From assembly GCA_012798755.1 (NCBI GenBank), contig JAAZMP010000037.1, forward strand, positions 581 through 64,580: a stretch of DNA of 64,000 nucleotides, read 5' to 3'. The notes below the pieces were generated by a model, which did no database searches, had not been told where the DNA came from, and saw only the letters and a list, made by a program, of their open reading frames with translations. Position 1 is the first letter of the stretch, and the number at the start of each line of letters is the position of its first letter. Source of the DNA: Bacillota bacterium (lineage in GTDB: Bacteria; Bacillota; Dethiobacteria; DTU022; UBA8154). A program made the translations under genes and the position numbers. Of the stretch, positions 3,017 to 20,059 are shown one piece after another.

Positions 3017-4768
3017 TCATTTAGTTGCAGAAAGGTCCCTAAGTAGTTCTGATATTGAACTTTTTAAAGCATCCATTTCCTGGATTGCTTTTTCTTTACT
3101 GGTGCTTTTTACACCAAAATAAAATTTTATCTTTGGTTCTGTTCCTGAAGGGCGTATACAAAACCAAGAATCTTCTTCCAATAGATATTTAAGCGAATTG
3201 CTTGTAGGCAGTCCTGTGGCTGTCTTTCTTTTTGCAATGGTGTCAATGCTCTCTCCGGTAAGATAATCTATAATGTGTGTTACGCGTTTGTCGCCGATTT
3301 GATTCAGCGCAGATTTCCGGAAAAATTCAACGGTTTTTTTTGCTTGCCCCGGATCTTGGTTGTCCAAGTCAATGTTGACAAGTTCTTCCATAAAATAGCC
3401 ATATTTTTTGTACAGGTTGTCCAAGGCCTGGATTAAACTTATACCTTTGGATTTATAATAAGCAGCCATTTCTACCGTTAACTGGCTGGCCTGAATGGCA
3501 TCTTTGTCCCTGACAAAATCATCGATCAGAAAGCCGCAGCTTTCTTCATAACCGAAAAGAAAGGTTTTTTGTCCCGAGTCCACAAGTTCTTTAATTTTTT
3601 CCCCGATATATTTAAAACCGGTGAGTGTTTCCAAGGTTGTTATTCCGTATGAAGAGGCAATCGATCTGCCCATTTCCGAGGTTACCACTGTTTTAATAAC
3701 GATGCCGTTTATAGGCAGGCGCTGCTGTTTTTGGCGGCGGGATAATATGTATTCCAGCAATAAACAGCCAAGCTGATTTCCCGTGAGAGGAATAAAACGG
3801 CCGTTTTCATCTTTAATCGCTGCACCTAAACGATCGGCATCAAGATCTGTAGCCAGGATAAGATCGGCGGATTTTTCTACGGCAAGCTTGACAGCAAGTT
3901 CAAAGGTATCCCATTCTTCCGGATTGGGATGTTTTATCGTGCTAAAATTAGGATCAGCTTTGGCCTGTGAGGACACTATAAAAAGGTTTTTTAGTCCTGC
4001 TGCTTGAAGGGCCTGTGGAATAATATTTTTTCCGGTGCCATAAAGAGGTGTGTAGACTACCTTTAGATGTGGGTAATGCTTACCGTGGTTGTTGTCCAGG
4101 CGGATCTTCGAAAGGTGTTCCAGGTATTTTGAAAATATATTTTCTCCGATTGAAACTAACATACCCTGTTGAGTGGCATCTTTTAAACCGGCGGTTTTTA
4201 CGAGCAGTTCATTTTTTACTGTAGCAATTTCTGCCGTAATAGAATTTGCCAGCGCATCCGTTATCTGCCCGCCATCAGACCAGTAAACCTTGTAACCATT
4301 GTCTTGGGCAGGGTTATGGCTGGCAGTGATTACTATTCCGGCGATGGCGTTTAGTTCCCTGACAGCAAAGGAAAGTAGCGGGGTAGCCGCCGGTTCAGAA
4401 AATAGGTATACTTTAATATCCCACCTAAGCAATACAGAGGCAGCCTCCCGTGCAAATCGATCTGAATTTTTTCTTGTATCGTAAGCTATTACTACACGGG
4501 GGGCATCGCTGGACATGTTTTTTGGGGATGTGTATTTTTGGATAAAGCGAGCCAGGCCTTCAGTGACTTTGCGTATTATGTAGATGTTCAGCCTGGACGA
4601 TCCAGCCCCCATTCGCCCCCTGATGCCTCCTGTTCCAAATGTCAATTCCCTGGAGAAACGCGCGGCAATTTCTTTTTTTTGGTCGGATATCTGTAATAAT
4701 TCTTCCCTGATTTCTTTGTCCAGGCCGGGAAATTCCAGCCATTTTTTGTACCTATCCCGGTAGTCCAT
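3017..4768 (-). CDS. pgcA: Alpha-D-phosphohexomutase (phosphoglucomutase/phosphomannomutase, PgcA-type)
   Basis: 583 aa; active-site TASHNP plus GTGGIRG. Confidence 0.85.
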   Translation of the reverse strand: MDYRDRYKKWLEFPGLDKEIREELLQISDQKKEIAARFSRELTFGTGGIRGRMGAGSSRLNIYIIRKVTEGLARFIQKYTSPKNMSSDAPRVVIAYDTRKNSDRFAREAASVLLRWDIKVYLFSEPAATPLLSFAVRELNAIAGIVITASHNPAQDNGYKVYWSDGGQITDALANSITAEIATVKNELLVKTAGLKDATQQGMLVSIGENIFSKYLEHLSKIRLDNNHGKHYPHLKVVYTPLYGTGKNIIPQALQAAGLKNLFIVSSQAKADPNFSTIKHPNPEEWDTFELAVKLAVEKSADLILATDLDADRLGAAIKDENGRFIPLTGNQLGCLLLEYILSRRQKQQRLPINGIVIKTVVTSEMGRSIASSYGITTLETLTGFKYIGEKIKELVDSGQKTFLFGYEESCGFLIDDFVRDKDAIQASQLTVEMAAYYKSKGISLIQALDNLYKKYGYFMEELVNIDLDNQDPGQAKKTVEFFRKSALNQIGDKRVTHIIDYLTGESIDTIAKRKTATGLPTSNSLKYLLEEDSWFCIRPSGTEPKIKFYFGVKSTSKEKAIQEMDALKSSISELLRDLSATK

Positions 4769-4799: not shown

Positions 4800-5873
4800 T
4801 TATAAGTACTTTTCCATTCCTTCAGCTTTTAATTGGTTGACCAGTTTTTTAATATCCTGTGCCTGATCCATGGAACAAACAAGTACAATGCCGTTGGTTT
4901 GAACAATGGCCAAATTTGACACCCCCACAGTGGCAATTAAAGCCTCTTGCCCATAAACAAGGCAATCTTTGGTGTCTACGCTTAGATGTTTCCCCTTGCT
5001 GACATTGTGGTTTTTGTCCCTGGGGGAATGTTCGGCCAGTGCAGCCCAGCTGCCGAGGTCGTCCCAGCCAAAATCCCCCTGCACGAGGAGGGTTTTGGGT
5101 TCTTTTTCCATAACACCGTAGTCGATAGAGATCTCGGGAACTTTTGGAAACAACTTTGCCAGTGCTTCAGTTTCTTTTTCGGTTCCCAGATATTGATCTA
5201 TCTCTTGTAAATGTTTATAAAGAAGGGGGAGATGTTTTTTGATTTTTTTTAAGATAAAACGCGCTTTCCAAGCAAAAATCCCGCTGTTCCAAAGAAAAAG
5301 GCCGGAGTCCAAGAACTCCCGGGCTTTTTGGTTGTCAGGTTTTTCCACAAAACGTTGCACCCGATAGACCATGGGATCTTTGGCTAAAGCGGGTTCTGCT
5401 TTTTCAATGTAGCCATAGCCTGTTTCCGGGCGTGTAGGGGTAATACCGATGGTTACCAAAACATCTTCATTTGATGCCAGTTCCATGGCTCTGCCAATAC
5501 AGGAAAGAAAAGCTTTTTCGTTTATAACCAAATGATCGGCAGGAAGAACAAGCATAACCGGATCGGGATCTTTTTTTAAGAGATATAACGCTGCCAGCCC
5601 TATGCATGGTGCAGTGTTGCGGCCCAGCGGTTCAACAACAATATTGTTTCGGGGCAATTCAGAAAGGTGCTCTTGTACAAGCGGAAGGAAAGCCTTTCCC
5701 GTAACGACCAGAATCTTTTCCGGGGAAAAAAATCCATTAAGGCGATCAAATGTCTGCTGGATCAACGATCGTTCCCCAATCAGGTTTAGGAATTGTTTGG
5801 GAAAATCATTCCTGCTCCAGGGCCAAAATCGTTCACCTTTGCCGCCAGCCATAATAACAGCATAGTTTCCCAC
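4800..5873 (-). CDS. manC: Mannose-1-phosphate guanylyltransferase (GDP-mannose pyrophosphorylase)
   Basis: The N-terminus AVIMAGGKGERFWP and following sequence match the NTP-transferase family of ManC/CpsB. Confidence 0.85.
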   Translation of the reverse strand: MGNYAVIMAGGKGERFWPWSRNDFPKQFLNLIGERSLIQQTFDRLNGFFSPEKILVVTGKAFLPLVQEHLSELPRNNIVVEPLGRNTAPCIGLAALYLLKKDPDPVMLVLPADHLVINEKAFLSCIGRAMELASNEDVLVTIGITPTRPETGYGYIEKAEPALAKDPMVYRVQRFVEKPDNQKAREFLDSGLFLWNSGIFAWKARFILKKIKKHLPLLYKHLQEIDQYLGTEKETEALAKLFPKVPEISIDYGVMEKEPKTLLVQGDFGWDDLGSWAALAEHSPRDKNHNVSKGKHLSVDTKDCLVYGQEALIATVGVSNLAIVQTNGIVLVCSMDQAQDIKKLVNQLKAEGMEKYL

Positions 5874-5910: not shown

Positions 5911-6273
5911 CTACGTTCTCCCGTAGCTGTCTTCCAGGCGTACAATATCATCTTCTTCCAGGTAACTGCCAAATTGAACTTCGATAAAAACGAAGGGATC
6001 CTTTTCCTCATTGGCGGCCCGGTGTGCGGCTTCGATGGGGATATCTACTGCTTTTCCCGGGGTTAAATTGATTTTTTTGCCATCTAAGGTGACAACCCCT
6101 TTCCCTTGCACAGCTATCCAATGTTCAGAACGCCGGAAATGTTTTTGGTAGCTTAGTTTTTGTCCCGGGTGTACAATTATTCTTTTCACTTTATAGCCTT
6201 TCCCTTCCAACAGGACCTCCCAGCGGCCCCAGGGTGTATCAACCTTTTGTAATATTTCAGGCTTTTGTGGCAA
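5911..6273 (-). CDS. Cupin-fold protein resembling the C-terminal mannose-6-phosphate-isomerase domain of bifunctional ManC, encoded separately
   Basis: 120 aa; the cupin HxH...E...H pattern is present (HPGQKLSYQKHFRRSEHWIAVQGKG). It sits immediately downstream of manC in the same operon. Confidence 0.6.
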   Translation of the reverse strand: MPQKPEILQKVDTPWGRWEVLLEGKGYKVKRIIVHPGQKLSYQKHFRRSEHWIAVQGKGVVTLDGKKINLTPGKAVDIPIEAAHRAANEEKDPFVFIEVQFGSYLEEDDIVRLEDSYGRT

Positions 6274-6289
6274 TCCATTTCACGCTCCT

Positions 6290-8578
6290 TTAATCCTGCT
6301 CTGTCTTCAAGGCAAAATTGAAACGATCATGCATTTCCCAACGGTAAAGAGTTAGCAATGCTATAAGAAATGCTATTGTAGATTCCGCTCCTTTATTTTT
6401 GTTGACACCTTGCTTGTCCAGTCCGTCCGCGCAGGCACCCGTATGAGAAGAATAGAGGGCTTCACCAAACCGGTTTCTGCCCAGAAACCATTGAAAAGCA
6501 GCGTAACCCAGATCCAGGTATTTTTCTTTTCCAGAGAGGGTAAATGCCAGGACGTAGCCTTCTACAAGAGAACCGGCATCAATCGGTTGTTGGCTGTAAA
6601 CAGCCTTTTTCTTTCCTTTGTGGAACCAGCCTTCGTTTCCCACCAGATCGAAATAACCGTCCTTAAAAAGCACAGAAGTAAGGAAATCTAGACTTTCTAG
6701 CGCAATTTCCAGATATTCCTTTTTTTTAAAATGACGATAGGCCAGCAAAAGGGCTTGGGGAAGCCGGGCATTATCATAGGTAAGAAACGGTTCAAACCAG
6801 GGCCATTCTGCAGAGGAGTGTCTGCGGAAAAAATCTACCAGTTTTTCTGCAATCAAATTCAAATGTTTTCTTGCTTTTTTATTACCGGGTAGCCGCTGCA
6901 AATAGGCATCAATGCCCAAAACGCTGTAAGCCATGGATCTGCTGTATGTAAGCCTGTCCAAAAAAGGCAAACTCTGATCGAAAATTTCCCGGGCCAGTAA
7001 ATCTTGCCCTTCGCTTTGGTACAATCCTGTTGCTGCACCCAAACCCCAAAGAGAACGGCCAAATGTATCTTCGCTTATTTCTTTGTCTTCAAACTGTAAC
7101 TGGTAGTTCATTATGTTGGCGAACCAACCGTTTTCTTGGCGGGCGTATGCAATAAAAGCGAGGTATTTTTCGATTAATGGCATAACGGAACCGGTACGAA
7201 AAAGATTATGATAGGCACAGCAGGCTGCCAAAGCGCGGGCGGCATCATCAGTGGAATATCCATGCCAACGGGAATGTACACCGTAGCGGGTATGCTGCAT
7301 TATGCCAGTATCATCAGTTAGTGATTCCAGAAATTGCAAATTAGCAATGGGCAAAGTATGTAGGTAACCGCTTTTTTTTAAGGAGTAGCCTTTCGATGAA
7401 ACTTCATCAAGTGTGTTTTCAAAGAGTTCGGTATATTTATCAGCCACTATATTCCAGGACATCTTTTTCCCTAAAGCAAAAGCATGGGAGGCTATAGAAC
7501 GTCTTTTATCTTCATTTTCCAGTAGTTCTAAAAGGGATTTACTTAAACCCAACGAGTCTTTAAAGTTTATCAATTTTCCCCGTCCACCGGAAAGAGCCTC
7601 TTTGGCATGGTGATAGGGGGTGGAAACAATTGCCTTGCCTCTCCCCAAGGCCTGGCTTAGGACACCGCTGGTAATTTGCTCTTCAGAATGGTAAGGGCAG
7701 ACAACGATGTCGGCTGCGCCGAGGTATGTTCCCAGGGTGGGATCATCTACAAATTCATTAACGAAAAGAACATTTTTTTCAAGGTGGAGGTCTTCTACAG
7801 TTTTTGTAAGCATTTCACGATATTTTTCCCCGTGTTGTTTTTTAACTACCGGGTGTGTCATACCCAAAATAATATACAACACATCCGGAAACTTTTTAAC
7901 TACCGGTGGCAAAGCCTCCAGCATTATTTCCAAGCCTTTGTTGGGGCTTACGAAGCCAAAAGTTAAGATGATTTGCCGGTTAATAAGGTTTAGCTTGTGT
8001 TTATAAAAAACGGGATCAATAAAAGGCGTATCCGGTACACCGTGGTAAATAAGGCGCACCTTCTGTTCAGGAATTCTATAAGTGTTTTTGAGTATAGTTA
8101 AAGCCAGTCTGTTCATCACAACCAGGCTCCGGGAAAAAGCGGCAATTTCTACAAAAACTTTATGCTGGCCGGGGGTGGGCTTGGTTAGAACTGTATGTAA
8201 TGTTGTTACTACCGGTTTACGGAGATGCCCCAAAAGTTCCACAATATAACTGCCATCGGGGCCTCCAAACAGCCCAAATTCATGCTGCAGAGAAACCAGA
8301 TCTATATTATGTGAATTGATCAGATCAGCCGCCTTTCGATAATCGATCAATTTTTCCTGCCCGATCTGGAAAAGTACCTCCGGTGGGTAGTTGTATCCTT
8401 CTTCTGTATCATTTAAGGCTATAAAAACTCCGGCGTTTTGTCCCAGCTTAGATTCCAACGCCTCATTTAAATTATTTGTAAAAGTGGCAATTCCGCAACG
8501 GCGGGGTAGGCAGCTACTTATATACGCTACACGTAATCGTTTTTTTACTGACAAAAAGCTATTATTATGGTTAAACAA
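6290..8578 (-). CDS. GT4 glycosyltransferase fused to a C-terminal ~350-aa (alpha/alpha)6-barrel glycoside-hydrolase-like domain
   Basis: 762 aa. Residues ~1-400 show the GT-B/GT4 C-terminal signature (LYIILGMTHP...VCPYHSEEQITSGVLSQALGRGKAIVSTP). Residues ~410-760 are W/Y-rich, with RSLWGLGAATGLY and AARALAACCAYH typical of six-hairpin glycosidases (GH63/GH15-like). The exact family is uncertain. Confidence 0.65.
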   Translation of the reverse strand: MFNHNNSFLSVKKRLRVAYISSCLPRRCGIATFTNNLNEALESKLGQNAGVFIALNDTEEGYNYPPEVLFQIGQEKLIDYRKAADLINSHNIDLVSLQHEFGLFGGPDGSYIVELLGHLRKPVVTTLHTVLTKPTPGQHKVFVEIAAFSRSLVVMNRLALTILKNTYRIPEQKVRLIYHGVPDTPFIDPVFYKHKLNLINRQIILTFGFVSPNKGLEIMLEALPPVVKKFPDVLYIILGMTHPVVKKQHGEKYREMLTKTVEDLHLEKNVLFVNEFVDDPTLGTYLGAADIVVCPYHSEEQITSGVLSQALGRGKAIVSTPYHHAKEALSGGRGKLINFKDSLGLSKSLLELLENEDKRRSIASHAFALGKKMSWNIVADKYTELFENTLDEVSSKGYSLKKSGYLHTLPIANLQFLESLTDDTGIMQHTRYGVHSRWHGYSTDDAARALAACCAYHNLFRTGSVMPLIEKYLAFIAYARQENGWFANIMNYQLQFEDKEISEDTFGRSLWGLGAATGLYQSEGQDLLAREIFDQSLPFLDRLTYSRSMAYSVLGIDAYLQRLPGNKKARKHLNLIAEKLVDFFRRHSSAEWPWFEPFLTYDNARLPQALLLAYRHFKKKEYLEIALESLDFLTSVLFKDGYFDLVGNEGWFHKGKKKAVYSQQPIDAGSLVEGYVLAFTLSGKEKYLDLGYAAFQWFLGRNRFGEALYSSHTGACADGLDKQGVNKNKGAESTIAFLIALLTLYRWEMHDRFNFALKTEQD

Positions 8579-8974
8579 GCTTGTGTTTTCCTCCTTTTTC
8601 CAAAATTTTTGCGGTATTTAAATCATTGTTAAACAGCTATTTTGCTGCAAAGTAGGAAGTTCAAACAAGACAATTTGTGAATTCTCCGGTTTTCCCGGAA
8701 GTATTATGCTCGACGTATATGGCTATTGGTTCCGGAAGGGATAAGGAAATAAAGGGATAGCTGAAGTAGGCGTAAATTTATTGCAGTTAAATTTTGTCTC
8801 CTCTGATTATTATAACACGCTTTCCGTGAAAATCAAAATCTTTATATAATACAGCCTGTAAAATTGATAACGGGGTTTTTTGACTCTTGGGCCAGTTTAT
8901 TGTATATTTAAGCGAAGAAGAATATTTTTGAAAGCAGTAAATAAAATTTTATTATAATTATTTGGAGGTCTACA

Positions 8975-11900
8975 ATGTTTGAATTGGAAAAATCTTATAA
9001 GCAAAATATGGCCCCGGTCTTATCCGATGCCAATATGGTTGGTAAGGCCGATCTGGCCCTGGGTATTCCTTTCTTGTACGATACGGAAAAAAAAGAACAG
9101 ATGCTTAAAGCTGTGCAAACAGGGCTGTCTACATTTTTCCCCAATTTAAAGGCAGTGATCATCTGTTTTACGGCGGATAAAAATTATTATTCCCAAGATA
9201 ATGAAATTGGCAAAAAAAATGTTACGGAATTGCAGGAGAATATTATTAGCTTTACATATACTAATGAAGGGCTGATTAAAAAAGGCTGGGCACTAAGGGG
9301 AATTATGGAACTGGCATCGGCTTTGGATGCCGATCTTGTCGTCTTAGAACCTGCCCTTTTTGCAACCGAAGGAGGTTCTATCGGCCTAACTCCAGACTGG
9401 ATCCGGCTACTTTACCAACCTGTTATGGAAGGGCATGCTGATTTGGTACTGCCCCGTTTCAAGTCTCCGCTTTTAGAAAACAGCATTGCAGACCATTTTG
9501 TTTTCCCCCTTTTGGGGGCGCTTTATAATCTGGAACTGCGGGCCTGTTTGGGAGCCGGCCTTTCTTTTAAACGTAGCCTTTTGCCAAGGTACGTAGACGA
9601 CGCCGGGAAATGGCCCAGGGAAGCATTTGAATTTGGTATAGATGTATGCCTTTTGGTTAATGCTTTAGAACAAGGGGCCGAGGTTGCTGAAGTTTATTTA
9701 GGGCAAAAGCCTGTTACACCTTTACCCGTTGATTTACAGTATATGTTTGTCCAGACCGTCCAAGTTCTTTTCAATGCCATTGGAAAAAAACCGTCCCAGC
9801 AGTCCTGGAGAATAAAGCCGGCGGCACTGCGTTCTTCTTTGATTTTTGGTTCCCGGGAAAGCAATTACCTGTCATCCCCCATGCCAAAATATCAGAGCCT
9901 TATTGTTAACTTCCGGCGGGGACTCGTACGTTTTAACAGGGCAATATGGTCCCGAATATTTCCCGAAGAGATCACGGCCCAGTTCCAGGAGCTGGCCGAT
10001 CTTCCCAGGGAAGAATTTAATTTTCCCTCAATTCTTTGGGCGCAAGTGGTATACGACTCCTTGTTGGCTTACAACTTTATGCCCAATCTTAGTAAAGAAG
10101 ACATTGCTGCTGGTTTATGGCCCCTTTTTGAAGGCCGGCTGGCGGGATTCTTAAACGAAATTTCCATTGAAGATGCTTACGGTTTGCCGGATCCTACCCC
10201 TCAAGAAAATTTATGGTCTGCAATTGCCCGAGAGCAGGTTGATGACCAAATGGACACATTTATAGCCAGAAAACGCTACTTTATGGAAAGATGGTTTCAC
10301 CGTCGGGAGGCACTCCAGCCTTTTCTGCCGGAGATTGCTTACTGGGAATATATCCCAGGCATTCCCATTATTTTACCATTGAACATAGAAACTCCCGAAG
10401 GAAAAACTGAACATGTGTCTGCTATCTATGAGCGGCTTCTCATGGAATATAAGGAGCAATTTGAACGGTTTATTTTTGATAATCTTGGTCTTACTGCTAA
10501 AGACGGTTCTTTTAAAATTGCCTATGCCCTGCGTGAACTTTTGCAGCGGCTTGAAGAAAACCTGGACAAATTGCTTTTGCCGGGCGATATCCATACTCCT
10601 GATGGAATGCAAGCTTTCGTAGAGCAACTTACCAAACTTTTGCCTTCGGTACAAAGTTTTTCGTTGAAAAGTGAAGTGGCGGAGGTCTTATTAAGGGAGT
10701 ACCCGCCACGCAACCTTATTACAATCCGTGGTTGCCAGGATATAGATGAGCTCTTCCAAAAACATGATCCGCTTGAAGCGCTGGCCCTGGCAAATTGGTC
10801 GGAGGAAACCAGATATATCACCCTTATCAATGAAACGCTCAGGAAGACTTTACAACCGCATCATTTTGAAGTTTCCTCCATTAAACCCGTTATTGTGGAC
10901 TACAGAGATTTCCCTGCTCTGGCCAATATCAAGGAAGCCCCGGTACTCAACCACTTATCCAGTCGGATAGTGATCGGCAACCTCCGACGGGGCAGCGGTG
11001 GCGAATTTCCCAAAATCAGACTCTTTACCACCGTTCTTAAAAGTGTTATTGATGCTAAGCAATTTGGCTTGATCTGGGAATCTTTTGCCCGTAATCGCAA
11101 AGAATTTGCAGCCATGGTTATGAATTCTATTGAACATCACTGGGGTGAGGCTGCTTTTTCGGCTCACAGCATTTTTGAAAACAGGCAGCACCGGCTTCTC
11201 AGGGATACACTTAAAAAGATTGCTTTGCGCTGCAAAAGCTCTGAAAAAAAAGATATAGCCGACGCTGGAGAACTTTTAGAAACGATTTTGGAAGGTTACC
11301 ACTTAGGTTTAACTTTGCCTGACGGACATTTCATAACGGCTTCCCCTTGGACCTGGGCCAGTTACAGTTTCAAAGGAGGAAAAGATTTTCCTACGCCTCT
11401 TTCCGCGATGATTGAGCGACGTTGGTTTGACAGTGAGCTTTTTTATCGTTGTTGTGAAAAAATAGCAGTAACCCGTGAGGATATTTTTCTTAAAATCACA
11501 GAACTTATGGGCCAAGGGCGTGAGATTGATGATCTAGCCGTATTATATCTTGGTGCCCCTAAACGTGCTAAAGAAATAATTTTGGAACAAAAAATTGATA
11601 AAGATCCGCTGCCTGCAGGGGAGCTTAAAAGATCCGCTTTTAACCCCTTGCTTGTTCCCATTGAAAAGCATGACTGGGAATCAAAGTATGTTCTTAACTG
11701 CGGAACTATCAGGGTAAACGGCCTGGTGTACATTTTTTATCGGGCAGTAGGTGAAGATGGTATCTCACGGCTGGGGCTTGCTACCAGCAGGGATGGTTTG
11801 CATGTGGATGAACGGCTTCCCGAACCTGCCTTTAGCCCCGGGCCTGAAAGCGAAAAAATGGGTTGTGAAGATCCCCGTTTGATCATGATCGAAGGCAGGA

Positions 11901-12574
11901 TCTATATGCTGTATACGGCCTTCGACGGCACTACCCCCCAGATTGCTTTAGCTTCCATCACACCGGATGATCTGGTTAACTATCGTTGGCAGCATTGGCA
12001 CCGGCATGGCCTCGTTTTTCCCAACTTCCCAAATAAGGATGCCATCTTCTTTCCGGAGCGTTTTAACGGCAAATTAGTTATGTATCACCGCATTAATCCA
12101 AACATTTGGTTGGCATCTGCAGATAGTTTTGACACACCCTGGCCCAGAGAAAATCACCACATCGTTATGGGCATTCGTTCCGGTATGATGTGGGATGCCG
12201 TCAAAATCGGAGCCGGCGCGCAACCTTTAAAAACAAAATATGGCTGGCTGCTTATCTATCATGGTGTGGATTACTGTCTTACTTACCGGCTTGGCATTTT
12301 TTTAACCTCATTAGACGATCCGGCAGAGATTTTGTACCGCTCGCCCAATTCTATTTTGGAACCGGAAACGTCCTACGAAATAGGAGTTTTTGGCCAATGC
12401 TGGGTTCCCAACGTTGTCTTCACCTGTGGTGCATTGCCTGCTGTTGAAAAGGAGATACTGGATGATGACGATGAGATCCTTGTTTATTATGGGGGAGCAG
12501 ATACCGTCATCGGTGTAGCAAGTGCAACCTTGGGCGAATTGATCCCTGCCAAGGTCCGTCAAAAGCTGAAATAA
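8975..12574 (+). CDS. 1199-aa multidomain protein: N-terminal GpgS-like GT-A glycosyltransferase (GT81-like), a central ~500-aa helical region, and a C-terminal GH130 mannoside-phosphorylase domain
   Basis: N-terminus: ALDADLVVLEP...WIRLLYQPVM...LVLPRFKSP...FPLLGALYNLELRACLGAGLSFKRSLLPRY...FEFGIDVCLL parallels glucosyl-3-phosphoglycerate synthase (DSDLINP..WLVGPLL..LVKSFYRRP..RPLLAALRPEL..QPLSGEYAASRELL..YGVEIGLL). C-terminus: NCGTIRVNGLVYIFYRAVGEDGISRLGLATSRDG..., MGCEDPRLIMIEGRIYMLYTAFDG..IALASI, FPERFNGKLVMYHR, WDAVKIGAGAQPLKTKYGWLLIYHGVD and ILVYYGGADTVIGVA are classic GH130 blocks. Confidence 0.7.
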   Translation: MFELEKSYKQNMAPVLSDANMVGKADLALGIPFLYDTEKKEQMLKAVQTGLSTFFPNLKAVIICFTADKNYYSQDNEIGKKNVTELQENIISFTYTNEGLIKKGWALRGIMELASALDADLVVLEPALFATEGGSIGLTPDWIRLLYQPVMEGHADLVLPRFKSPLLENSIADHFVFPLLGALYNLELRACLGAGLSFKRSLLPRYVDDAGKWPREAFEFGIDVCLLVNALEQGAEVAEVYLGQKPVTPLPVDLQYMFVQTVQVLFNAIGKKPSQQSWRIKPAALRSSLIFGSRESNYLSSPMPKYQSLIVNFRRGLVRFNRAIWSRIFPEEITAQFQELADLPREEFNFPSILWAQVVYDSLLAYNFMPNLSKEDIAAGLWPLFEGRLAGFLNEISIEDAYGLPDPTPQENLWSAIAREQVDDQMDTFIARKRYFMERWFHRREALQPFLPEIAYWEYIPGIPIILPLNIETPEGKTEHVSAIYERLLMEYKEQFERFIFDNLGLTAKDGSFKIAYALRELLQRLEENLDKLLLPGDIHTPDGMQAFVEQLTKLLPSVQSFSLKSEVAEVLLREYPPRNLITIRGCQDIDELFQKHDPLEALALANWSEETRYITLINETLRKTLQPHHFEVSSIKPVIVDYRDFPALANIKEAPVLNHLSSRIVIGNLRRGSGGEFPKIRLFTTVLKSVIDAKQFGLIWESFARNRKEFAAMVMNSIEHHWGEAAFSAHSIFENRQHRLLRDTLKKIALRCKSSEKKDIADAGELLETILEGYHLGLTLPDGHFITASPWTWASYSFKGGKDFPTPLSAMIERRWFDSELFYRCCEKIAVTREDIFLKITELMGQGREIDDLAVLYLGAPKRAKEIILEQKIDKDPLPAGELKRSAFNPLLVPIEKHDWESKYVLNCGTIRVNGLVYIFYRAVGEDGISRLGLATSRDGLHVDERLPEPAFSPGPESEKMGCEDPRLIMIEGRIYMLYTAFDGTTPQIALASITPDDLVNYRWQHWHRHGLVFPNFPNKDAIFFPERFNGKLVMYHRINPNIWLASADSFDTPWPRENHHIVMGIRSGMMWDAVKIGAGAQPLKTKYGWLLIYHGVDYCLTYRLGIFLTSLDDPAEILYRSPNSILEPETSYEIGVFGQCWVPNVVFTCGALPAVEKEILDDDDEILVYYGGADTVIGVASATLGELIPAKVRQKLK

Positions 12575-12822: not shown

Positions 12823-13917
12823 TTGGTGGAAAAGAAAGTAAAATTGCGCCGGTTTTTTCCCGGTTCCAACTCGGCCTATGGGTTTTGTTCTTTTTTTAAT
12901 CAGATTGCCGATCCCAAAACCAGCAGAACCTATATTATTAAAGGCGGGCCCGGTTCCGGTAAATCCACTTTCATGAACAAAATTGGTAAGGAAATGCAAA
13001 AACAAGGGCTTGCTGTGGAATATCACCATTGTGCTACTGATCATGTTTCCTTAGACGGTCTTGTTGTCCCGGATCTTAAGATTGCCTTTATAGACGGTAA
13101 TTCCCCCCATGTTGTAGATCCGTGCTATCCGGGGGCAACGGGTGAAATAATCCATTTTGGACAGTTTTGGGATGAAGCCGGCATAAGGAAAAACAAATCT
13201 TCTGTAATCAGGCTTAATGCTGAAGCGAAAAGATTGTTTAATCAGTCCTACAAAGTTCTGGCTGCTGCCAGAATGTATCTGCAGGCCCTGGAAAACTATG
13301 AAAATATAGAGGGTGTTTTAGATCAAGGATCTTGGAATGATCTTGCCCTGCAACTAATGGAAGAAATATTGTTCACCAAAAACCCCAAAGGATTGCCTGG
13401 GAAAACCAGAAGGCTCTTTGTCTCAGCCATTTCTCCTGCGGGAACTATAAATTTTTTGGCTTCCCTTGTTGCAGGCTTAGATAAAGTTTATATTCTGCAA
13501 GGCGATAATGGAGCAGCCAAGGATAAACTACTGAAAAGAATGGCAGATGCAGCTTGTATGAGCGGTTTTAACATAGAAGCTTACCATTGTGCTTTTGATC
13601 CTCATAGGATAGATCATTTAATTATTCCTGAACTAAGCACAGCTATAATTAACAGCAAAGAACCCCATTGTTTTTCTATTCCCGGTGCAGGGCAGGAAAT
13701 AAACACGGCGGTATTTACCAAGCTTTCACCATCACTACAAGAAGAAAAACAATTACTTCACAAAAAATTCCAAGCTATTTTAAGTCAAGCCATATTTTTC
13801 CTGGCTAAAGCAAAATCCAGACGTGATGAACTGGAAAAACTTTACATACCCAATATTGATTTTGCCGGAATCGATCAACTGCGGGAAAAAACGGTAGAAC
13901 GCATTTTGGATTCCTAA
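12823..13917 (+). CDS. Tandem P-loop NTPase/kinase-like protein (canonical Walker A GGPGSGKST; second domain degenerate)
   Basis: 364 aa. There is an internal duplication: RTYIIKGGPGSGKSTFMNKIGKEMQKQGLAVEYHHCATDHVSLDGLVVPDLKIAFIDGNSPHVVDP versus RRLFVSAISPAGTINFLASLVAGLDKVYILQGDN...IEAYHCAFDPHRIDHLIIPELSTAIINSKEPHCFSIP. Start is TTG/GTG after AAGGAGGGG. Confidence 0.6.
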   Translation: MVEKKVKLRRFFPGSNSAYGFCSFFNQIADPKTSRTYIIKGGPGSGKSTFMNKIGKEMQKQGLAVEYHHCATDHVSLDGLVVPDLKIAFIDGNSPHVVDPCYPGATGEIIHFGQFWDEAGIRKNKSSVIRLNAEAKRLFNQSYKVLAAARMYLQALENYENIEGVLDQGSWNDLALQLMEEILFTKNPKGLPGKTRRLFVSAISPAGTINFLASLVAGLDKVYILQGDNGAAKDKLLKRMADAACMSGFNIEAYHCAFDPHRIDHLIIPELSTAIINSKEPHCFSIPGAGQEINTAVFTKLSPSLQEEKQLLHKKFQAILSQAIFFLAKAKSRRDELEKLYIPNIDFAGIDQLREKTVERILDS

Positions 13918-14391: not shown

Positions 14392-14503
14392 TGTTCCAAA
14401 ACGGTTATAATGCTTTTTGATAAAAAATTTATTATTATTATCTGCAATTGTTCGAATCATAATTGGTAAGATATTTTATTTTCGATATGATATCAAGGAG
14501 GAA

Positions 14504-15988
14504 ATGAGAGTGCCTTTAAAGCTTGATGTCCTAATTGGAAGTATTGTTTTTGTGATAGTTCTATCAGTTATTTCGGGTATTTTGGTTTTAAGAAGAGGAA
14601 GAGGCGTCAGTGGTGACAGTTATTTGTACGGTGATAAAAAAATAGGCCCATGGTATGCCGGGGTTACCCTGGGTTTATCCAGTATCGGAGCGCTTCACTG
14701 CACCGGTTTTATGGAATCCGGTGCCACCCTGGGAATAGTTACGATGTGGTTTGCTGTTGGTACAGGGATCATGTTTGCTGTAGTGGGCGGTTTTTTTGGG
14801 CCTATTTACCGAAAGCTGGGCTTAAACACAATACCGCAAATCTTTGCAAATATTTTTGATCTTAAAACCAGAGTTATGTCTTCTATAATAGCTCTGGTCT
14901 TTTGTTTTTCCCTGCTATCTTTGGAAACTCAGGGCGGGGCTATAATTATTACAGCTATAACAGGTATAGACCTTCGGGTTGCTTTATTTATATTCATGAT
15001 TTGTGCTTTAGTCTACATGTTGATCTCCGGGATGTGGCAGATAGCTTATGTAAATATTATTAATGCTATCGTTATGTATGCTGCTGTTATAATTGCTTTT
15101 ATTATTGTAACCTTAAAACTTCCTGCCGGATGGAGCGGCGTTGACGCTTTTTATATTGGACAGGGCCTGGGCAATGTTTTAGAGTTTTGGCCCTCCGATG
15201 TTAATGTCCTTTTGGGTTTTGCCATTGCCTTTGGCTTTGCCGTTACTTTTACTGATTCAACTGACCAGGGAACAATACAATATGCTCTTACTGCTGCTGA
15301 TGCAAAAACGGCCAGTAAGGCAGGTTTTATTGCTGTGTTGGTTAACTCTCCCTTTGCAATCTTTACGGTAGCTTTTGGCTTGGCCTCTTTTTCGATTGCT
15401 GAATTTTCCGCTTTCGGCCCCAAAATGTCTGGTCCTGCCATGTTGCTGTCATATCTACCTACCTTCCTTGTTGTTTTTGTCCTAGGTAGTTTTCTACTGG
15501 TCGTTTTTTCTACTTTTGCACGTTGTACAATGGCTATCAGCCAGATCATCATTAACGATGTCTATTTATTACTTACCAAAGCGGATGATTCACAAAAACA
15601 AAGAACAGTGCCCTGGCTAAGCAGGATTTTGATCATTGTTGCCGGTGTGGGTTCGGTAATTCCGGCTTATTTCCTGCCACATATTTTATTGGCAGGCATA
15701 TTCGTCTTCACGCTGGGAATACCGCTGTTTATTATGATGGTTTCCGGCCTGTTTTGGAAACGAAATTCTGATGCTGCTTTCATTACAATGGTAGTGGGAA
15801 TCATAGTAACCTTTGTCTGGGAGTATTCAGGCTTGGCTACTTTATTGGGAACACCGGGATGGTTTAATTCCGTTTATATGACCCTGTTTGTTTCTGTAAT
15901 ACTGGGCGTAGGACTTACTGCTCTGTTACCCGGAAAACCGGGGCTTTTAAGGAAAAAACGGGTTGATGCAGTTACCGAAAGCGTGTAA
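14504..15988 (+). CDS. Sodium:solute symporter (SSS/SSF family) transporter
   Basis: Multi-TM protein with SSS-type N-terminus (YGDKKIGPWYAGVTLGLSSIGALHCTGFMESGATLG). Starts ATG 14504 or GTG 14510, after AAGGAGG. Confidence 0.85.
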   Translation: MRVPLKLDVLIGSIVFVIVLSVISGILVLRRGRGVSGDSYLYGDKKIGPWYAGVTLGLSSIGALHCTGFMESGATLGIVTMWFAVGTGIMFAVVGGFFGPIYRKLGLNTIPQIFANIFDLKTRVMSSIIALVFCFSLLSLETQGGAIIITAITGIDLRVALFIFMICALVYMLISGMWQIAYVNIINAIVMYAAVIIAFIIVTLKLPAGWSGVDAFYIGQGLGNVLEFWPSDVNVLLGFAIAFGFAVTFTDSTDQGTIQYALTAADAKTASKAGFIAVLVNSPFAIFTVAFGLASFSIAEFSAFGPKMSGPAMLLSYLPTFLVVFVLGSFLLVVFSTFARCTMAISQIIINDVYLLLTKADDSQKQRTVPWLSRILIIVAGVGSVIPAYFLPHILLAGIFVFTLGIPLFIMMVSGLFWKRNSDAAFITMVVGIIVTFVWEYSGLATLLGTPGWFNSVYMTLFVSVILGVGLTALLPGKPGLLRKKRVDAVTESV

Positions 15989-16057
15989 TGTGCATTGATC
16001 AGGATAACGAAAACGGCCCGTTAGTGAAAAATTGTGGTTAGGAGAGGTATAACGCGA

Positions 16058-16822
16058 ATGAGACTGCAAGATAAGGTTGTTATTGTTACCGGTGCAGCGC
16101 GGGGTATCGGCCAGGCTTTTGCGCTGGGCCTTGCTAAAGAGGGTGCCAAGGTTGTCGCTGCCGACATGTTGGAAGTAACGGATACGATGGATAAAGTAAA
16201 GGCCGAAGGCGGAACAATTATAGGGATAAATGTAGATGTTTCGCATGCGGGCAGCACCCGTGATATGGCTTCGGAAACAATGAAGGAATTTGGAAACATT
16301 GATGTTATCGTGAATAACGCAGCTATATGGGGAGGGCTTAAATTCAAACCCATGGATCTAATTTCAGAGGAAGAATGGGATGCGGTTTTTGCAGTTAATG
16401 TAAAAGGTGTCTGGCAGTGTTGCAAAGCCGTAGTTCCCTATATGAAAGAACAAGGTAAAGGTTCAATAATCAATATTTCTTCTGCCTCTATTTTCCAGGG
16501 TATCCCACTGCTGGGCCATTATGTAGCTTCAAAGGGTGCCATATGGGCCTATACACGTTCTCTTTCCCGGGAAATAGGGGAATTTGGAATTCGGGTTAAT
16601 TCAATTTCCCCGGGTTATACGATGACACAGGCTTCCAAGAATCTTTCCGATGATCAGGAGCAGCTGGATTATATTTACAACCTTAACATAGATCAACGTA
16701 TCATTAAACGGGCTATGTATTCTGAGGATCTCATTGGTGCTCTTTTATTTTTGGCTTCAGACGACAGTGCTTTTATTACCGGGCAAAATATCAATGTTGA
16801 TGGTGGTTCGTACCATTATTAA
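16058..16822 (+). CDS. SDR-family NAD(P)-dependent oxidoreductase
   Basis: TGAARGIGQA glycine motif; YxxxK (YVASK) catalytic dyad. Confidence 0.85.
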   Translation: MRLQDKVVIVTGAARGIGQAFALGLAKEGAKVVAADMLEVTDTMDKVKAEGGTIIGINVDVSHAGSTRDMASETMKEFGNIDVIVNNAAIWGGLKFKPMDLISEEEWDAVFAVNVKGVWQCCKAVVPYMKEQGKGSIINISSASIFQGIPLLGHYVASKGAIWAYTRSLSREIGEFGIRVNSISPGYTMTQASKNLSDDQEQLDYIYNLNIDQRIIKRAMYSEDLIGALLFLASDDSAFITGQNINVDGGSYHY

Positions 16823-17205: not shown

Positions 17206-18975
17206 ATGCGTAGAATTATCTTGTTTGGTTTTTCCTCGGCAGTTTCCAAATTATGTTCGAAAAAAGTGCTCCTTTTGTTACTGTTATCTGTTTTGCCTAT
17301 TTATTTAGTGGGATGTGCTGCTTATTCCTTAGAAAAAGGAACCGACATTGTTCCTATAAGCCAACATGATGAAAAGTTGCTACTATCTGACGGAAAAGAA
17401 GGAACGGATAACTCCTTGGAAAAAGAACTTGCGGAAAAATTGGCCCAAGAGGAAAAGGAACGCCAGGCCCGCGAGGAAAGAAAAAAACAAGAAGAGCTGC
17501 GCAAAAAAGAACTTGGCGCCTTTTATGTTCCTTTACCTCCTTTGGAACAGGATCGGGTTTCACCTGTTAAAGCCAGAGGTATTTATTTGACGGGCAACAC
17601 TGTGGGGCATTCCCGCTACCGGGACTTATTGGATGTAGTGGAATCGACGGAATTAAATGCAGTGGTTATTGATGTTAAAAACGATCATGGTTTAGTCACC
17701 TACAATACCAATATCGAAATCGTAAAGCAAGTAGGCGCCAGCCGCGATATCCCCATAAAAGATCTTAAAACGGTTTTGGACGAACTGCATAGTAAAAATA
17801 TCTATTCCATTGCCCGGGTGGTCGTCTTCAAAGACCCCTATCTTGCCGAGCAAAAACCGGAATGGTCCATCCAGAAAAAAGGAGGCGGGCTTTGGAGGGA
17901 TCGTAACAAGGTTGCCTGGGTCAATCCCTATGATCGAAATGTTTGGGACTATAACATTGCTGTTGCCAGGGAAGTGGCTTGCTTGGGTTTTCAAGAGATC
18001 CAGTTTGATTATATCAGGTTTCCTGAAAATGCCCATATCGTAGATAAAGAGGCTTATTTCCCCGGGAAAGATGTCTCTAAAGAAATGATTGTTGGCGAAT
18101 TTTTGGCTTATGCCAGGGAACAATTAAAGGAATACAACACCTATCTTTCCGCTGACGTTTTTGGTGTTATTGCTACCTCCTGGGGCGATACTGATCGCAT
18201 CGGTCAAACTTGGGAAGAAATGTCACCACATGCCGATTACATCTGCCCTATGGTTTATCCCAGCCACTATGGGCGCGGTTATTTTGGGTTTTCCGTTCCG
18301 GATGCTCACCCGGGTAAAACAGTGGAGTATGCCCTAAGCGATGCTTTGAAACGCAATGCCACCCTTTCCTGCCCGGCTATTATTCGTCCCTGGTTGCAGA
18401 GCTTTACGGCCTCTTGGATAGGCGGAGGCATAAACTATGGTCCGTCTGAAATACGCCAGCAGATTGAAACAGCGCAAAGGCTGGGTGTTGACGAATTTCT
18501 ACTTTGGAATGCCAACAACCGCTACCAGCGGGAGTCGTTGTTGCCGGCAGAAGATCCGGATCCGGCACTGGAACAATATTTTAAGGCTGTTTCTGCAGGC
18601 CTGGATTCTTTAGGAAGAACCCCTGAACAGGCTGTAGAAATTTTTTTAGAGGCTGTACGCACTCGGGATTGGCAGGAGGCGTTTGCCCTGCAGATTACTG
18701 ATTTTACTATGGATCATCATGATTATCCGGAATGGAAAAAAAGCTGGACAGCACGACCTGTTCATTATGATATAAAACCTTTGAACCCTCCTGCAGGAGG
18801 AAATGTGGGCCCATTTTATGTCAGTTTAAGTGTACATTTAACAATAGGTGGCGATGAACATAAACTGCCCAACGAAAACTGGGAAGTCAGAAAAGAGAAC
18901 TTGCTTTGGAGGGTCAAGCCTTCTGCAGAATTTGTAGAACTAATGACCCTTAGCCCAGATCCTGAAAACAGTTAA
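17206..18975 (+). CDS. Lipoprotein with a coiled-coil KE-rich linker and a putative glycoside-hydrolase-like TIM-barrel domain (GHL/DUF4015, YngK-like)
   Basis: Lipobox LVGC; E/K-rich segment; ARGIYLTGNTVG...NAVVIDVKNDHG...WVNPYD...QFDYIRFPEN resembles the GHL10/DUF4015 family. Confidence 0.6.
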   Translation: MRRIILFGFSSAVSKLCSKKVLLLLLLSVLPIYLVGCAAYSLEKGTDIVPISQHDEKLLLSDGKEGTDNSLEKELAEKLAQEEKERQAREERKKQEELRKKELGAFYVPLPPLEQDRVSPVKARGIYLTGNTVGHSRYRDLLDVVESTELNAVVIDVKNDHGLVTYNTNIEIVKQVGASRDIPIKDLKTVLDELHSKNIYSIARVVVFKDPYLAEQKPEWSIQKKGGGLWRDRNKVAWVNPYDRNVWDYNIAVAREVACLGFQEIQFDYIRFPENAHIVDKEAYFPGKDVSKEMIVGEFLAYAREQLKEYNTYLSADVFGVIATSWGDTDRIGQTWEEMSPHADYICPMVYPSHYGRGYFGFSVPDAHPGKTVEYALSDALKRNATLSCPAIIRPWLQSFTASWIGGGINYGPSEIRQQIETAQRLGVDEFLLWNANNRYQRESLLPAEDPDPALEQYFKAVSAGLDSLGRTPEQAVEIFLEAVRTRDWQEAFALQITDFTMDHHDYPEWKKSWTARPVHYDIKPLNPPAGGNVGPFYVSLSVHLTIGGDEHKLPNENWEVRKENLLWRVKPSAEFVELMTLSPDPENS

Positions 18976-19282: not shown

Positions 19283-20059
19283 GTGAAACTGCAAGGAAAA
19301 GTAGCACTCATTACCGGTGGAGCTACTGGTATAGGTGCTGCCACCGTGAGGCGGTTTGTTAAAAATGGGGCAAAGGTTTGCATTGTCGGCCGGCGCGAAG
19401 AATATCTTGATAAAATAATTGAAACCTTACCTTCGGGGACAGCGGTAAAATGCCCGGGGGATGTTTCCAGTCCCGAAGATATTAAACGGATGGTAGAAAC
19501 AGTGATAAAGTTCGGCGGGAGGCTCGATATTCTTGTCAATAATGCGGCTTATTCTGTTTTGGGGGGGGTTACGGATATAGATCTTGATGATTGGCATAGA
19601 TCTATTGATGTGAATGTGACCGGTCCGTTTTTGCTTATGAGAGCCGCAATACCACATATGATCAAAGGCGGCGGAGGATCTATTGTAAACATTTCTTCCT
19701 TGGCCGGTGTACGCAGCATACCAAGCGGATCAGCATATTGTACCACAAAGTCTGCTCTTGTTGCGCTTACACAGCAGGTTGCATTGGACTATGGGGCCCA
19801 CAAAATACGGTGCAACGCAGTCTGCCCCGGACTAAGCAAGACACCCATGGCTGATAACGCTTATGGCAATGTGGATGATCTTCCGGAAAGTGTTTTTGAT
19901 AACATTCCTTTGCACAGGGCCTCAGATCCGGATGAAATCGCAAGCATCTGTGAATATCTAGCCAGTGATGATTCATCTTATATGACAGGCTCCGTTCTTC
20001 TGATAGACGGTGGTACACATGTTGTTGATGCTTTTGCGGCGGGACTGGAAATTAAATAG
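19283..20059 (+). CDS. SDR-family oxidoreductase
   Basis: GTG start; TGGATGIGAA glycine motif; YCTTK catalytic dyad. Confidence 0.85.
   Translation: MKLQGKVALITGGATGIGAATVRRFVKNGAKVCIVGRREEYLDKIIETLPSGTAVKCPGDVSSPEDIKRMVETVIKFGGRLDILVNNAAYSVLGGVTDIDLDDWHRSIDVNVTGPFLLMRAAIPHMIKGGGGSIVNISSLAGVRSIPSGSAYCTTKSALVALTQQVALDYGAHKIRCNAVCPGLSKTPMADNAYGNVDDLPESVFDNIPLHRASDPDEIASICEYLASDDSSYMTGSVLLIDGGTHVVDAFAAGLEIK

Follow-up and report, generated by a model that had tools for sequence, protein, structure and literature searches.

Phosphorylases of glycoside hydrolase family 130 (GH130) are regarded as almost exclusively single-module catabolic enzymes. A survey of the family put its monomodular fraction above 99% and counted, in CAZy as of November 2018, six multimodular sequences of the types "GH130-GT81 and GH130-GH130" (Li et al. 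2020, PMC7660257). The gene described here lies on a 64,000-nucleotide stretch of Bacillota DNA (contig JAAZMP010000037.1; "the window" below always means this whole stretch), and its 1199-residue product joins a GH130 domain to a GpgS-type glycosyltransferase body and to a 410-aa central domain that we call MidB. Our preferred reading, which we put forward tentatively, is that the locus may build, and by phosphorolysis also dismantle, an intracellular beta-1,2-mannosylated glycoside. An earlier reading made from the sequence alone (the sequence-only reading) had recognised the fusion and held it to be undescribed, which overstated its novelty, as GH130-GT81 modular proteins had been catalogued by 2018 (PMC7660257). 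Those proteins share the combination of modules in one polypeptide and are probably complete-genome members of this family. They are catalogue entries only, with no mention of the central domain or of the clade-specific degeneration of the glycosyltransferase (PMC7660257), and full-text literature searches found no study of them. What is new here, as far as can be told, is the breadth of the family, the four-module anatomy, a central domain that matches no protein family or solved structure, the alternative C-terminal modules, the partnership with GT4 genes and the clade-specific loss of ligands in the GT-A domain.

Other described systems resemble this locus in part. Mannosylglucosylglycerate (MGG) is made in Petrotoga and Rhodopirellula by GpgS (GT81), MggA (GT4) and the phosphatase MggB (PMC3736172). 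As in that cytoplasmic pathway, a GT81-type module is paired here with a GT4 gene of the GDP-mannose-using type, sometimes in one operon. The mannose of the MGG pathway is alpha-linked and no phosphorylase takes part, whereas here a beta-1,2-mannoside phosphorylase is covalently joined to the module, and no recognisable phosphatase of the MggB or HAD type is found among the conserved neighbours. Cyclic beta-1,2-glucan synthase (Cgs) is a fusion of a GT84 domain, a cyclase and a GH94 phosphorylase. Within one polypeptide it too combines a GT-A domain with a large middle part and, at the C-terminus, a beta-1,2-specific glycoside phosphorylase, but the likeness is an analogy of layout only. The families differ throughout, our protein has no transmembrane segments, and its central domain gave no structural match to the (alpha/alpha)6 cyclisation domain of Cgs. 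The beta-1,2-mannoside cluster of Thermoanaerobacter combines GH130, ManC and GT4 genes (PMC4264767), a trio that is also present at the window locus.

The fusion and its GH130 module

The gene and its modules are laid out as follows.

8964..8968, forward strand: ribosome-binding site GGAGG, read in the sequence, 6 nt 5' of the ATG at 8975
8975..12574, forward strand: the giant gene, a single ATG-to-stop open reading frame (ORF) of 1199 aa with the modules GT-A, helical, MidB and GH130
8975..9829, forward strand: module 1, aa 1-285, a GT-A domain, GT81/GpgS-like with degenerate motifs, assigned from the fold model and homology
9872..10354, forward strand: module 2, MidA, aa 300-460, helical, found also behind the GT-A domain in stand-alone GpgS-like proteins of ~420 aa
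10355..11584, forward strand: module 3, MidB, aa 461-870, a conserved domain with no match in Pfam, NCBIfam or the PDB fold search
11627..12571, forward strand: module 4, aa 885-1199, a GH130 domain with Pfam, PDB and NCBIfam matches

The Met at 8975 is also the point where the alignment of homologues begins. The highest Kyte-Doolittle mean over any 19 residues is 1.37, below membrane-span level. Because no hydrophobic stretch is long enough to span a membrane, the protein is probably soluble and cytoplasmic. A protein search returned 38 homologues, nearly all of 1180-1240 aa and 50-77% identical, along which conservation runs unbroken through all regions and across the module boundaries. Counted as full-length are 37 homologues, 50-78% identical. 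In a scan of one genome per GTDB species, 161 loci matched the middle region. The closest carriers are Dethiobacter and other Dethiobacteria, the group from which the window probably derives; the gene is also found in other Bacillota, Halanaerobiales, Sumerlaeota, Anoxynatronum isolates and Tepidanaerobacter, and further in many Dehalococcoidia, Desulfobacterota, Omnitrophota and archaea of the Methanomicrobia type. Hidden Markov models built for the segments NtGTA (aa 1-285), MidA (300-460), MidB (461-870) and GH130 (885-1199) found the order NtGTA-MidA-MidB-GH130 at about 65 loci, which is essentially every complete ORF, and in at least 60 bacterial and archaeal species. The family alignment used throughout holds 62 sequences, divided into a near clade of 24 that are at least 49% identical to the window protein (Bacillota, Sumerlaeota) and a far clade of 38 that are at most 44% identical (Dehalococcoidia, archaea, Desulfobacterota, Tepidanaerobacter).

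A gene of this size could in principle be two or three neighbouring genes run together by a sequencing or assembly frameshift, and one related metagenome-assembled genome (MAG), L019, possibly a long-read assembly, does have the gene broken into ORFs of 382 and 822 aa. Set against this are the unbroken ORF of 1190-1260 aa in more than 60 independent assemblies, isolate genomes of Anoxynatronum among them, and the continuous conservation across the module boundaries; together they exclude the artefact, to which we assign practically no probability. The single ORF and its full-length homologues bear out the view of the sequence-only reading that this is one giant polypeptide. The middle is not a separate gene drawn in by a missed frameshift, and the fusion is strongly conserved.

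Some copies of the gene deserve a comment of their own. In L019 (7155-10743, a Dethiobacteria MAG) the two ORFs overlap within MidA, most likely through a frameshift error of assembly. One 3140-aa protein of the representative library (P0170) contains the whole four-module unit at aa ~268-1536, with RidA/L-PSP and alanine-dehydrogenase/PNT domains C-terminal to it; it may be either a real mega-fusion or an artefact of gene calling or assembly. Contig JAUSPR010000152.1 (L004 / L020), labelled as a Thermoplasmata archaeon, carries a near-clade, Bacillota-like copy of 55% identity; next to it come a 338-aa GT4 and then a 313-aa GH130 that stands alone. This "archaeal" copy reflects either mis-binning or recent transfer. 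Stand-alone GH130 genes come after the giant gene in L015 and L016 as well.

The C-terminal module matches PF04041 over aa 907-1190 (E=9e-51; 173.1 bits against a cut-off of 26). This match backs the GH130 blocks picked out in the sequence-only reading, every one of which is present in the translation: GCEDPR (963-968), FPERFNGKLVMYHR (1026-1039), WDAVKIG (1073-1079) and YYGGADTVIGVA (1171-1182). Its top PDB match is the 1,2-beta-oligomannan phosphorylase Teth514_1788 of Thermoanaerobacter (9fj8, 5.6e-59), followed by the beta-1,2-mannobiose phosphorylase Teth514_1789 (7fip, 1.1e-53). With these enzymes of subfamily GH130_6 the module shares, over about 300 aa, the EDPR, PNKDA, HR, YHG.D and YYGGADT blocks, the short L2 loop, the beta-1,2 determinants and the basic phosphate ligands. 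It differs from them by small insertions in the loop preceding PNKD, and by its setting: the Teth514 enzymes are single-module proteins of ~300 aa, whereas here GH130 is the C-terminal quarter of 1199 aa. A five-bladed beta-propeller would be its expected fold, because it is ~40% identical to solved propellers.

The active-site residues were mapped by alignment to Uhgb_MS and the Teth514 enzymes and read against published work (PMC12814180, PMC4599007).

11867..11872, forward strand: E965-D966, the +1-subsite Glu and the catalytic Asp, which align with E136-D137 of Uhgb_MS

D966 also aligns with the Asp of the EDPR block in the Teth514 enzymes. R923 and E965 correspond to R47 and E136 of Uhgb_MS, a pair of +1-subsite determinants typical of beta-1,2-specific GH130 enzymes (PMC12814180). 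Phosphorylases of the family are told from hydrolases by phosphate-site residues that are kept basic, not Glu (PMC4599007), and K1021, H1038, R1039, K1077 and H1096 are matched by basic residues in 9fj8 and 7fip, both proven phosphorylases. R923, E965, D966, K1021, H1038 and R1039 are invariant in the 62 family members, and K1077 is nearly so. The domain scores 247.2 bits on the NCBIfam model for beta-1,2-mannobiose phosphorylase (NF052550), against 63 bits on the model for the beta-1,2-mannosidase BT3780; as the equivalog cut-off of 450 bits is not reached, it is related to the former and is not to be named as that exact enzyme. Neither the catalytic Asp nor the phosphate-binding residues are missing, and the determinants of beta-1,2 specificity are present besides. 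Judged by alignment, the module lacks none of the residues that reversible phosphorolysis is known to require, and we predict that it functions as a beta-1,2-mannoside phosphorylase, in a subgroup of its own. It is also the best-conserved of the four modules, with 58% identity between the clades.

The GT-A module and its lost ligands

An AlphaFold model of aa 1-300 (pLDDT 81.7, pTM 0.84) has the GT-A fold, and GpgS entries take ranks 1-4, 7 and 8 in a Foldseek search of the whole PDB. The closest solved structures are those of MGS (GT78), GpgS (GT81) and the Rubrobacter MpgS (GT81), so that GT81 enzymes are among the nearest neighbours and the domain is not of some unrelated fold. Direct comparison of sequences gave no such link. 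With E<=10 as the limit, neither Pfam nor NCBIfam matched aa 1-310 or aa 311-880, and searches of PDB sequences with the full-length (A1) and N-terminal (A2) profiles at the same limit found GH130 only. In hhalign the near-clade N-terminal profile reached 0.3% against GpgS, and A2 reached 0.5% against a mycobacterial GpgS profile that is itself shallow (Neff 1.3, mycobacterial sequences only).

The connection comes through relatives. The far-clade N-terminal domain aligns with mycobacterial GpgS at 95.5% in hhalign (E 1.5e-8, 218 columns) and displays the motifs IPFYNE, GKGW, LEADL, YGID and NLGIKIH. Stand-alone NtGTA+MidA proteins of ~420 aa form 32 clusters in the representative library, and many of them have a true DxD (VDSDL, VDADL) together with LGxKxH. 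All three that were tested had glucosyl-3-phosphoglycerate synthase (NF010496) as their best NCBIfam match (2e-11 to 5e-17, under the 262-bit cut-off), and one of the three also matches Pfam MGS_GT. From these comparisons, the GpgS homology of the present module is transitive only, by way of distant family members and stand-alone relatives; the label "GpgS-like" given by the sequence-only reading holds as a statement of homology, while a direct profile link is absent in Pfam, NCBIfam, PDB-sequence and hhalign searches. By the same comparisons, residues 1 to ~460 equate to a complete stand-alone enzyme body of the GpgS type.

The functional residues were placed by the hhalign register and counted by clade, with the roles of E54, D136, H258, T187 and the K114-D134-E232 network taken from the structure of M. 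tuberculosis GpgS (PMC2581804).

9347..9355, forward strand: E125-P126-A127, the GT-A DxD position (GpgS D134-S-D136) with the second metal-binding Asp lost, placed by the hhalign register and the family alignment
9326..9334, forward strand: D118-A119-D120, the sole DxD-like string of the N-terminal domain, non-catalytic, at the start of strand E120-123 in the model
GpgS E54 (binds ribose): here D36; Glu in 38/38 of the far clade and 0/24 of the near clade
GpgS D136 (binds metal): here A127; Asp in 37/38 far and 0/24 near
GpgS H258 / MGS H217 (binds metal): here V247; His in 23/38 far and 0/24 near
GpgS T187 (binds the acceptor carboxylate): here A172; mixed in the far clade, with Ser the commonest, and Gly/Ala in 22/24 near
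GpgS K114/D134/E232 (donor-sugar ion-pair network): here K103/E125/D223; kept in the far clade and in the near clade, where position 223 is Asp or Asn

With GpgS, MGS and MpgS the module thus shares the GT-A fold, the collinear motifs and the donor-sugar triad of retaining glycosyltransferases. It differs from GpgS in having CLGAG where that enzyme has its PLSGE loop, in lacking the equivalents of E54, D136 and H258, and in the roughly 900 further residues to which it is fused. The sequence-only reading had credited the domain with a DxD motif, and only D118-A-D120 fits that description. This string was rejected as the catalytic motif: it precedes the beta-strand, D118 is not conserved (the position is G/S/D/E/T across the family), and the true site, E125-P126-A127, is without the metal-binding Asp.

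Because the ribose-binding Glu, the metal Asp and the metal His are all lost, the module is unlikely to work as a standard GpgS. It is probably not a canonical nucleoside diphosphate (NDP)-sugar transferase, and its likeliest role would be in binding or regulation, or else in a non-canonical, metal-independent chemistry. A channelled two-enzyme route with a normal GpgS, as the sequence-only reading had envisaged, is therefore improbable in the near clade. In the far clade, which keeps ExD and mostly the His, a channelled route of the GpgS type is plausible on the same alignment.

The middle region, sister proteins and gene neighbourhood

The stretch between the two terminal modules had been taken for some 500 aa of uncharacterised helical sequence. 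It is indeed uncharacterised, but it measures about 590 aa and consists of two units, the helical MidA and a 410-aa mixed, mostly helical MidB. A model of aa 286-885 (pLDDT 74.5, mostly 85-95 within MidB) shows MidA as helical and MidB as mostly helical with small hairpins. The motifs YWEYIPG, SGGxFP, FSAHSIFE and WxWASYSFKGGKGxPTPLS are invariant in MidB, and its many invariant Glu, Trp, Tyr, Lys and Gly residues in the 62-sequence alignment suggest that it carries a ligand-binding or catalytic site. A PDB fold search of solved structures gave no match for MidB, and hhalign found no internal repeat and no relationship to the N-terminal domain, MidA, GH130 or the C-terminal domain of the neighbouring GT4 protein described below.

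Distant relatives of MidB exist in other settings. Its first ~270 aa recur in ~420-aa proteins that have no family assignment. In P0223 and P0262 such a relative is fused to a sugar-1-phosphate nucleotidyltransferase, and in L088/L089 (8001-9203; P0258) one is encoded directly after a gene for this kind of enzyme, within a polysaccharide cluster that contains a 2-hydroxyacid dehydrogenase, a TagF-like glycerophosphotransferase and a 695-aa class-V aminotransferase. This cluster hints at a pathway of activated C3 units or sugar phosphates. MidB and its ~420-aa relatives share few residues (K565, PP577-578, E610, Y/W614, E/D693), and these offer no mechanistic clue.

The modules are also found in other combinations. 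In L043, P0165 and P0187 the order is NtGTA-MidA-MidB followed by a TreT-like GT4, and in L080, L081 and P0177 it is GH130-GH130-MidB with no GT-A module. The giant protein is composed of three units that also occur separately, namely the GT-A+MidA body, MidB and GH130. The swap of the C-terminal enzyme for a TreT-like GT4 fits a logic of "core plus second glycosylation" and is silent on the role of MidB. As to the individual sister proteins, the Omnitrophota MAG L043 (3-6026) has Pfam TreT_GT1 and Glycos_transf_1 in place of GH130, and ~630 extra N-terminal residues with a weak methyltransferase-like match. The tandem proteins (L080:1753-4935 and L081:6063-9248 from Dehalococcoidales MAGs, and P0177) are ~1060 aa long, with two GH130 domains and then MidB; each is preceded by another GH130-like ORF of ~445 aa, and they are probably the "GH130-GH130" entries of CAZy.

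The neighbouring features are the following.

8579..8974, no strand: AT-rich intergenic region of 396 bp (33% GC), shared with the GT4 gene, with promoter-like hexamers on both strands
6290..8578, reverse strand: divergent partner of 762 aa, a PimA-like GT4 (aa ~1-395) with a C-terminal domain, from Pfam and PDB matches
5911..6273, reverse strand: mannose-6-phosphate isomerase (PMI), cupin type (PF01050 2.8e-35), syntenic in 18 loci, all near-clade or unclassified
4800..5873, reverse strand: mannose-1-phosphate guanylyltransferase, ManC (Pfam NTP_transferase and ManC_GMP_beta-helix), syntenic in 22 loci
3017..4768, reverse strand: phosphomannomutase/phosphoglucomutase (PMM; Pfam PGM_PMM domains I-IV), syntenic in 18 loci
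12823..13917, forward strand: P-loop NTPase of the PRK06851 family, 364 aa, 249 nt downstream (NF005320 1.3e-83, below the cut-off)

The partner protein matches Pfam Glycos_transf_1 / Glyco_transf_4, with a weak match to C5-epim_C, and its PDB matches are PimA (2e-12) and YPO2471 (4e-8). Its C-terminal domain is possibly an (alpha/alpha)6 barrel, and a far-clade homologue of this domain gives weak matches to GH88 and GH127, under their cut-offs. At 45 loci, drawn from both clades, a GT4-type gene is next to the giant gene, and the two often run in the same direction and abut. The near-clade set converts fructose 6-phosphate to mannose 6-phosphate, alpha-mannose 1-phosphate (Man-1-P) and GDP-mannose, and synteny of the block GT4-PMI-ManC-PMM extends to relatives of as little as 51% identity, with outer flanks that differ. 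Clustering of far-clade neighbourhoods found no conserved partner besides GT4-type genes; clusters of histidine kinases, ABC ATPases and enoyl-CoA hydratases near far-clade genes look incidental. We also considered that the adjacent GT4 had replaced a dead GT-A domain in the near clade only, an idea weakened by the many far-clade loci that have a GT4 next to an intact ExD...H.

A gene of the PRK06851 family is found near the giant gene in nine near-clade loci, usually within ~400 nt downstream, and the NTPase may belong to the system. The genes beyond it on the forward strand (14417-15988, 16034-16822, 17206-18975 and 19283-20059) encode a sodium:solute symporter, two short-chain dehydrogenases and a putative glycoside hydrolase of DUF4015 (E 7.6e-117), and may form a separate sugar-utilisation cluster; related loci have no such symporter near the giant gene. 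A gene of the PcrB family (heptaprenylglyceryl-phosphate synthase-like) lies upstream (1486-2220, forward strand), as it does in L001, which agrees with a Bacillota/Dethiobacteria origin of the window. A scan for promoters and terminators gave consensus matches only, not above the expectation from shuffled sequence, and no RNA family was detected when the whole window was scanned against Rfam.

What the locus may make

Put together, these observations allow the following scheme. A retaining transferase would place an alpha-linked primer sugar, and here this would most likely be the neighbouring GT4 with GDP-mannose; in the far clade the intact GT81-type domain may prime as well, with (phospho)glycerate as acceptor. 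The GH130 module would then add or remove beta-1,2-linked mannose, with Man-1-P as donor or product (beta-1,2-mannoside + Pi <-> alpha-Man-1-P + acceptor). The degenerate GT-A module would most likely serve in sugar or acceptor binding or in regulation, and not as a metal-dependent transferase, and MidB would carry out some step, possibly on a phosphorylated intermediate. Candidate products are a mannosylated solute of the glycosyl-glycerate type or a short, primed beta-1,2-mannan reserve. The former is close to what the sequence-only reading had proposed, and it fits the MGG-like pairing of a GT81-like module with GT4 as well as the sister proteins with a TreT-like GT4.

A number of points weigh against this reading. 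We infer the product, the acceptor, the flux direction and what MidB does. MidB has no detectable relative of known function, and the sole functional hints for it come from distant homologues, alike over only ~270 aa, that are fused to a sugar-1-phosphate nucleotidyltransferase or encoded beside one. Mannose-activation genes are seen at near-clade loci and not at those of the far clade. The GH130 domain scores under the equivalog cut-off of NCBIfam, so the acceptor may be something other than mannose or mannobiose. Metal-independent GT-A enzymes exist, and loss of the DxD and the His is no proof of inactivity. At the position of that His, 19 of the 24 near-clade sequences have Lys or Arg, and this protein has Val. 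Purifying selection still acts on the N-terminal module (mean identity of 45% inside the clade), so it has some function.

Among the alternatives is a literal extension of the sequence-only reading, with both end domains active. In this scheme 3-phosphoglycerate is glucosylated or mannosylated by the GT81-type domain, the phosphate is removed by MidB, and beta-mannose is then added from Man-1-P by GH130, a three-step line to a mannosyl-glycosyl-glycerate solute. The order of the domains is then the order of the reactions, the N-terminal domain is a homologue of GpgS, the donor-sugar triad is kept here, and the far clade retains YNE, GKG, ExD, YGID and LGxKxH. That sister proteins exchange GH130 for another sugar-adding enzyme, and that the known MGG pathway is likewise made of GT81, GT4 and a phosphatase (PMC3736172), speaks for it too. 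The near clade is where this scheme meets its difficulties, for there the ribose-binding Glu, the metal Asp and the metal His are each gone from all 24 sequences, the Thr for the acceptor carboxylate is Gly or Ala in 22, and the profile hardly aligns with GpgS. Moreover, MidB resembles no phosphatase in Pfam, NCBIfam or PDB searches, and the GH130-GH130-MidB proteins have no GT-A domain at all. We consider the literal scheme unlikely. Of similarly low probability in our judgement is salvage of the kind proposed for Thermoanaerobacter, in which imported beta-1,2-manno-oligosaccharides are turned into Man-1-P and, by ManC, into GDP-mannose for GT4, with the N-terminal and middle regions as appendages for substrate binding or oligomerisation. 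The degenerate GT-A module and the standing of GH130 as the best-conserved module would suit such a role, as would the company of GH130, ManC and GT4, also seen in the characterised Teth514 cluster (PMC4264767). Yet no sugar transporter or extracellular glycosidase is conserved beside the gene (the sodium:solute symporter occurs in this window only, and one cluster of ABC ATPases in 9 loci), PMI and PMM supply Man-1-P de novo, which salvage does not need, and some 880 extra residues that are strictly conserved, with many invariant polar ones in MidB, are hard to account for as a mere appendage.

Two further possibilities go beyond the preferred reading of a mannosylated glycoside that is both built and dismantled. 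By analogy with Cgs, the protein could be a polymer synthase that makes a length-controlled, perhaps cyclic, beta-1,2-mannan; the two share their N-to-C order, which runs from a GT-A domain through a large and mostly helical middle to a beta-1,2-specific phosphorylase, and GH130 enzymes of the Teth514_1788 type can polymerise beta-1,2-mannan from Man-1-P (PMC4264767, PMC12814180). Since membrane segments are missing, and the GT-A domain belongs with the retaining GT81 enzymes rather than with GT84 and is degenerate here, we find this very improbable. The other possibility, bolder and in our view rather doubtful, is that MidB represents a new enzyme fold whose substrate is a phosphorylated intermediate; it might, for instance, be a phosphatase of glycosyl-3-phosphoglycerate, or a phosphotransferase for sugars or hydroxy acids. 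The family would then be an assembly line in one polypeptide, running from primer glycosylation through processing to a second glycosylation by GH130 or the TreT-like GT4. Its product would be a new class of beta-mannosylated glyceric-acid glycosides or a bacterial and archaeal counterpart of the Leishmania mannogen, with the GT81 module of the Bacillota/Sumerlaeota clade reduced to a non-catalytic binding or regulatory domain.

Among species representatives, the family is spread over several bacterial phyla and methanogen-related archaea, with lineages of the subsurface, of alkaline habitats and of anaerobic digesters among them. Since Anoxynatronum sibiricum, A. buryatiense and Tepidanaerobacter acetatoxydans are cultured carriers, the question is experimentally tractable. 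The clade-specific loss of metal and nucleotide ligands in the GT-A domain is a clean natural case of a glycosyltransferase domain changing its role inside a fusion protein. The family as a whole suggests the existence of an intracellular mannoside not recognised so far, be it solute or reserve, and it brings in at least one uncharacterised domain.

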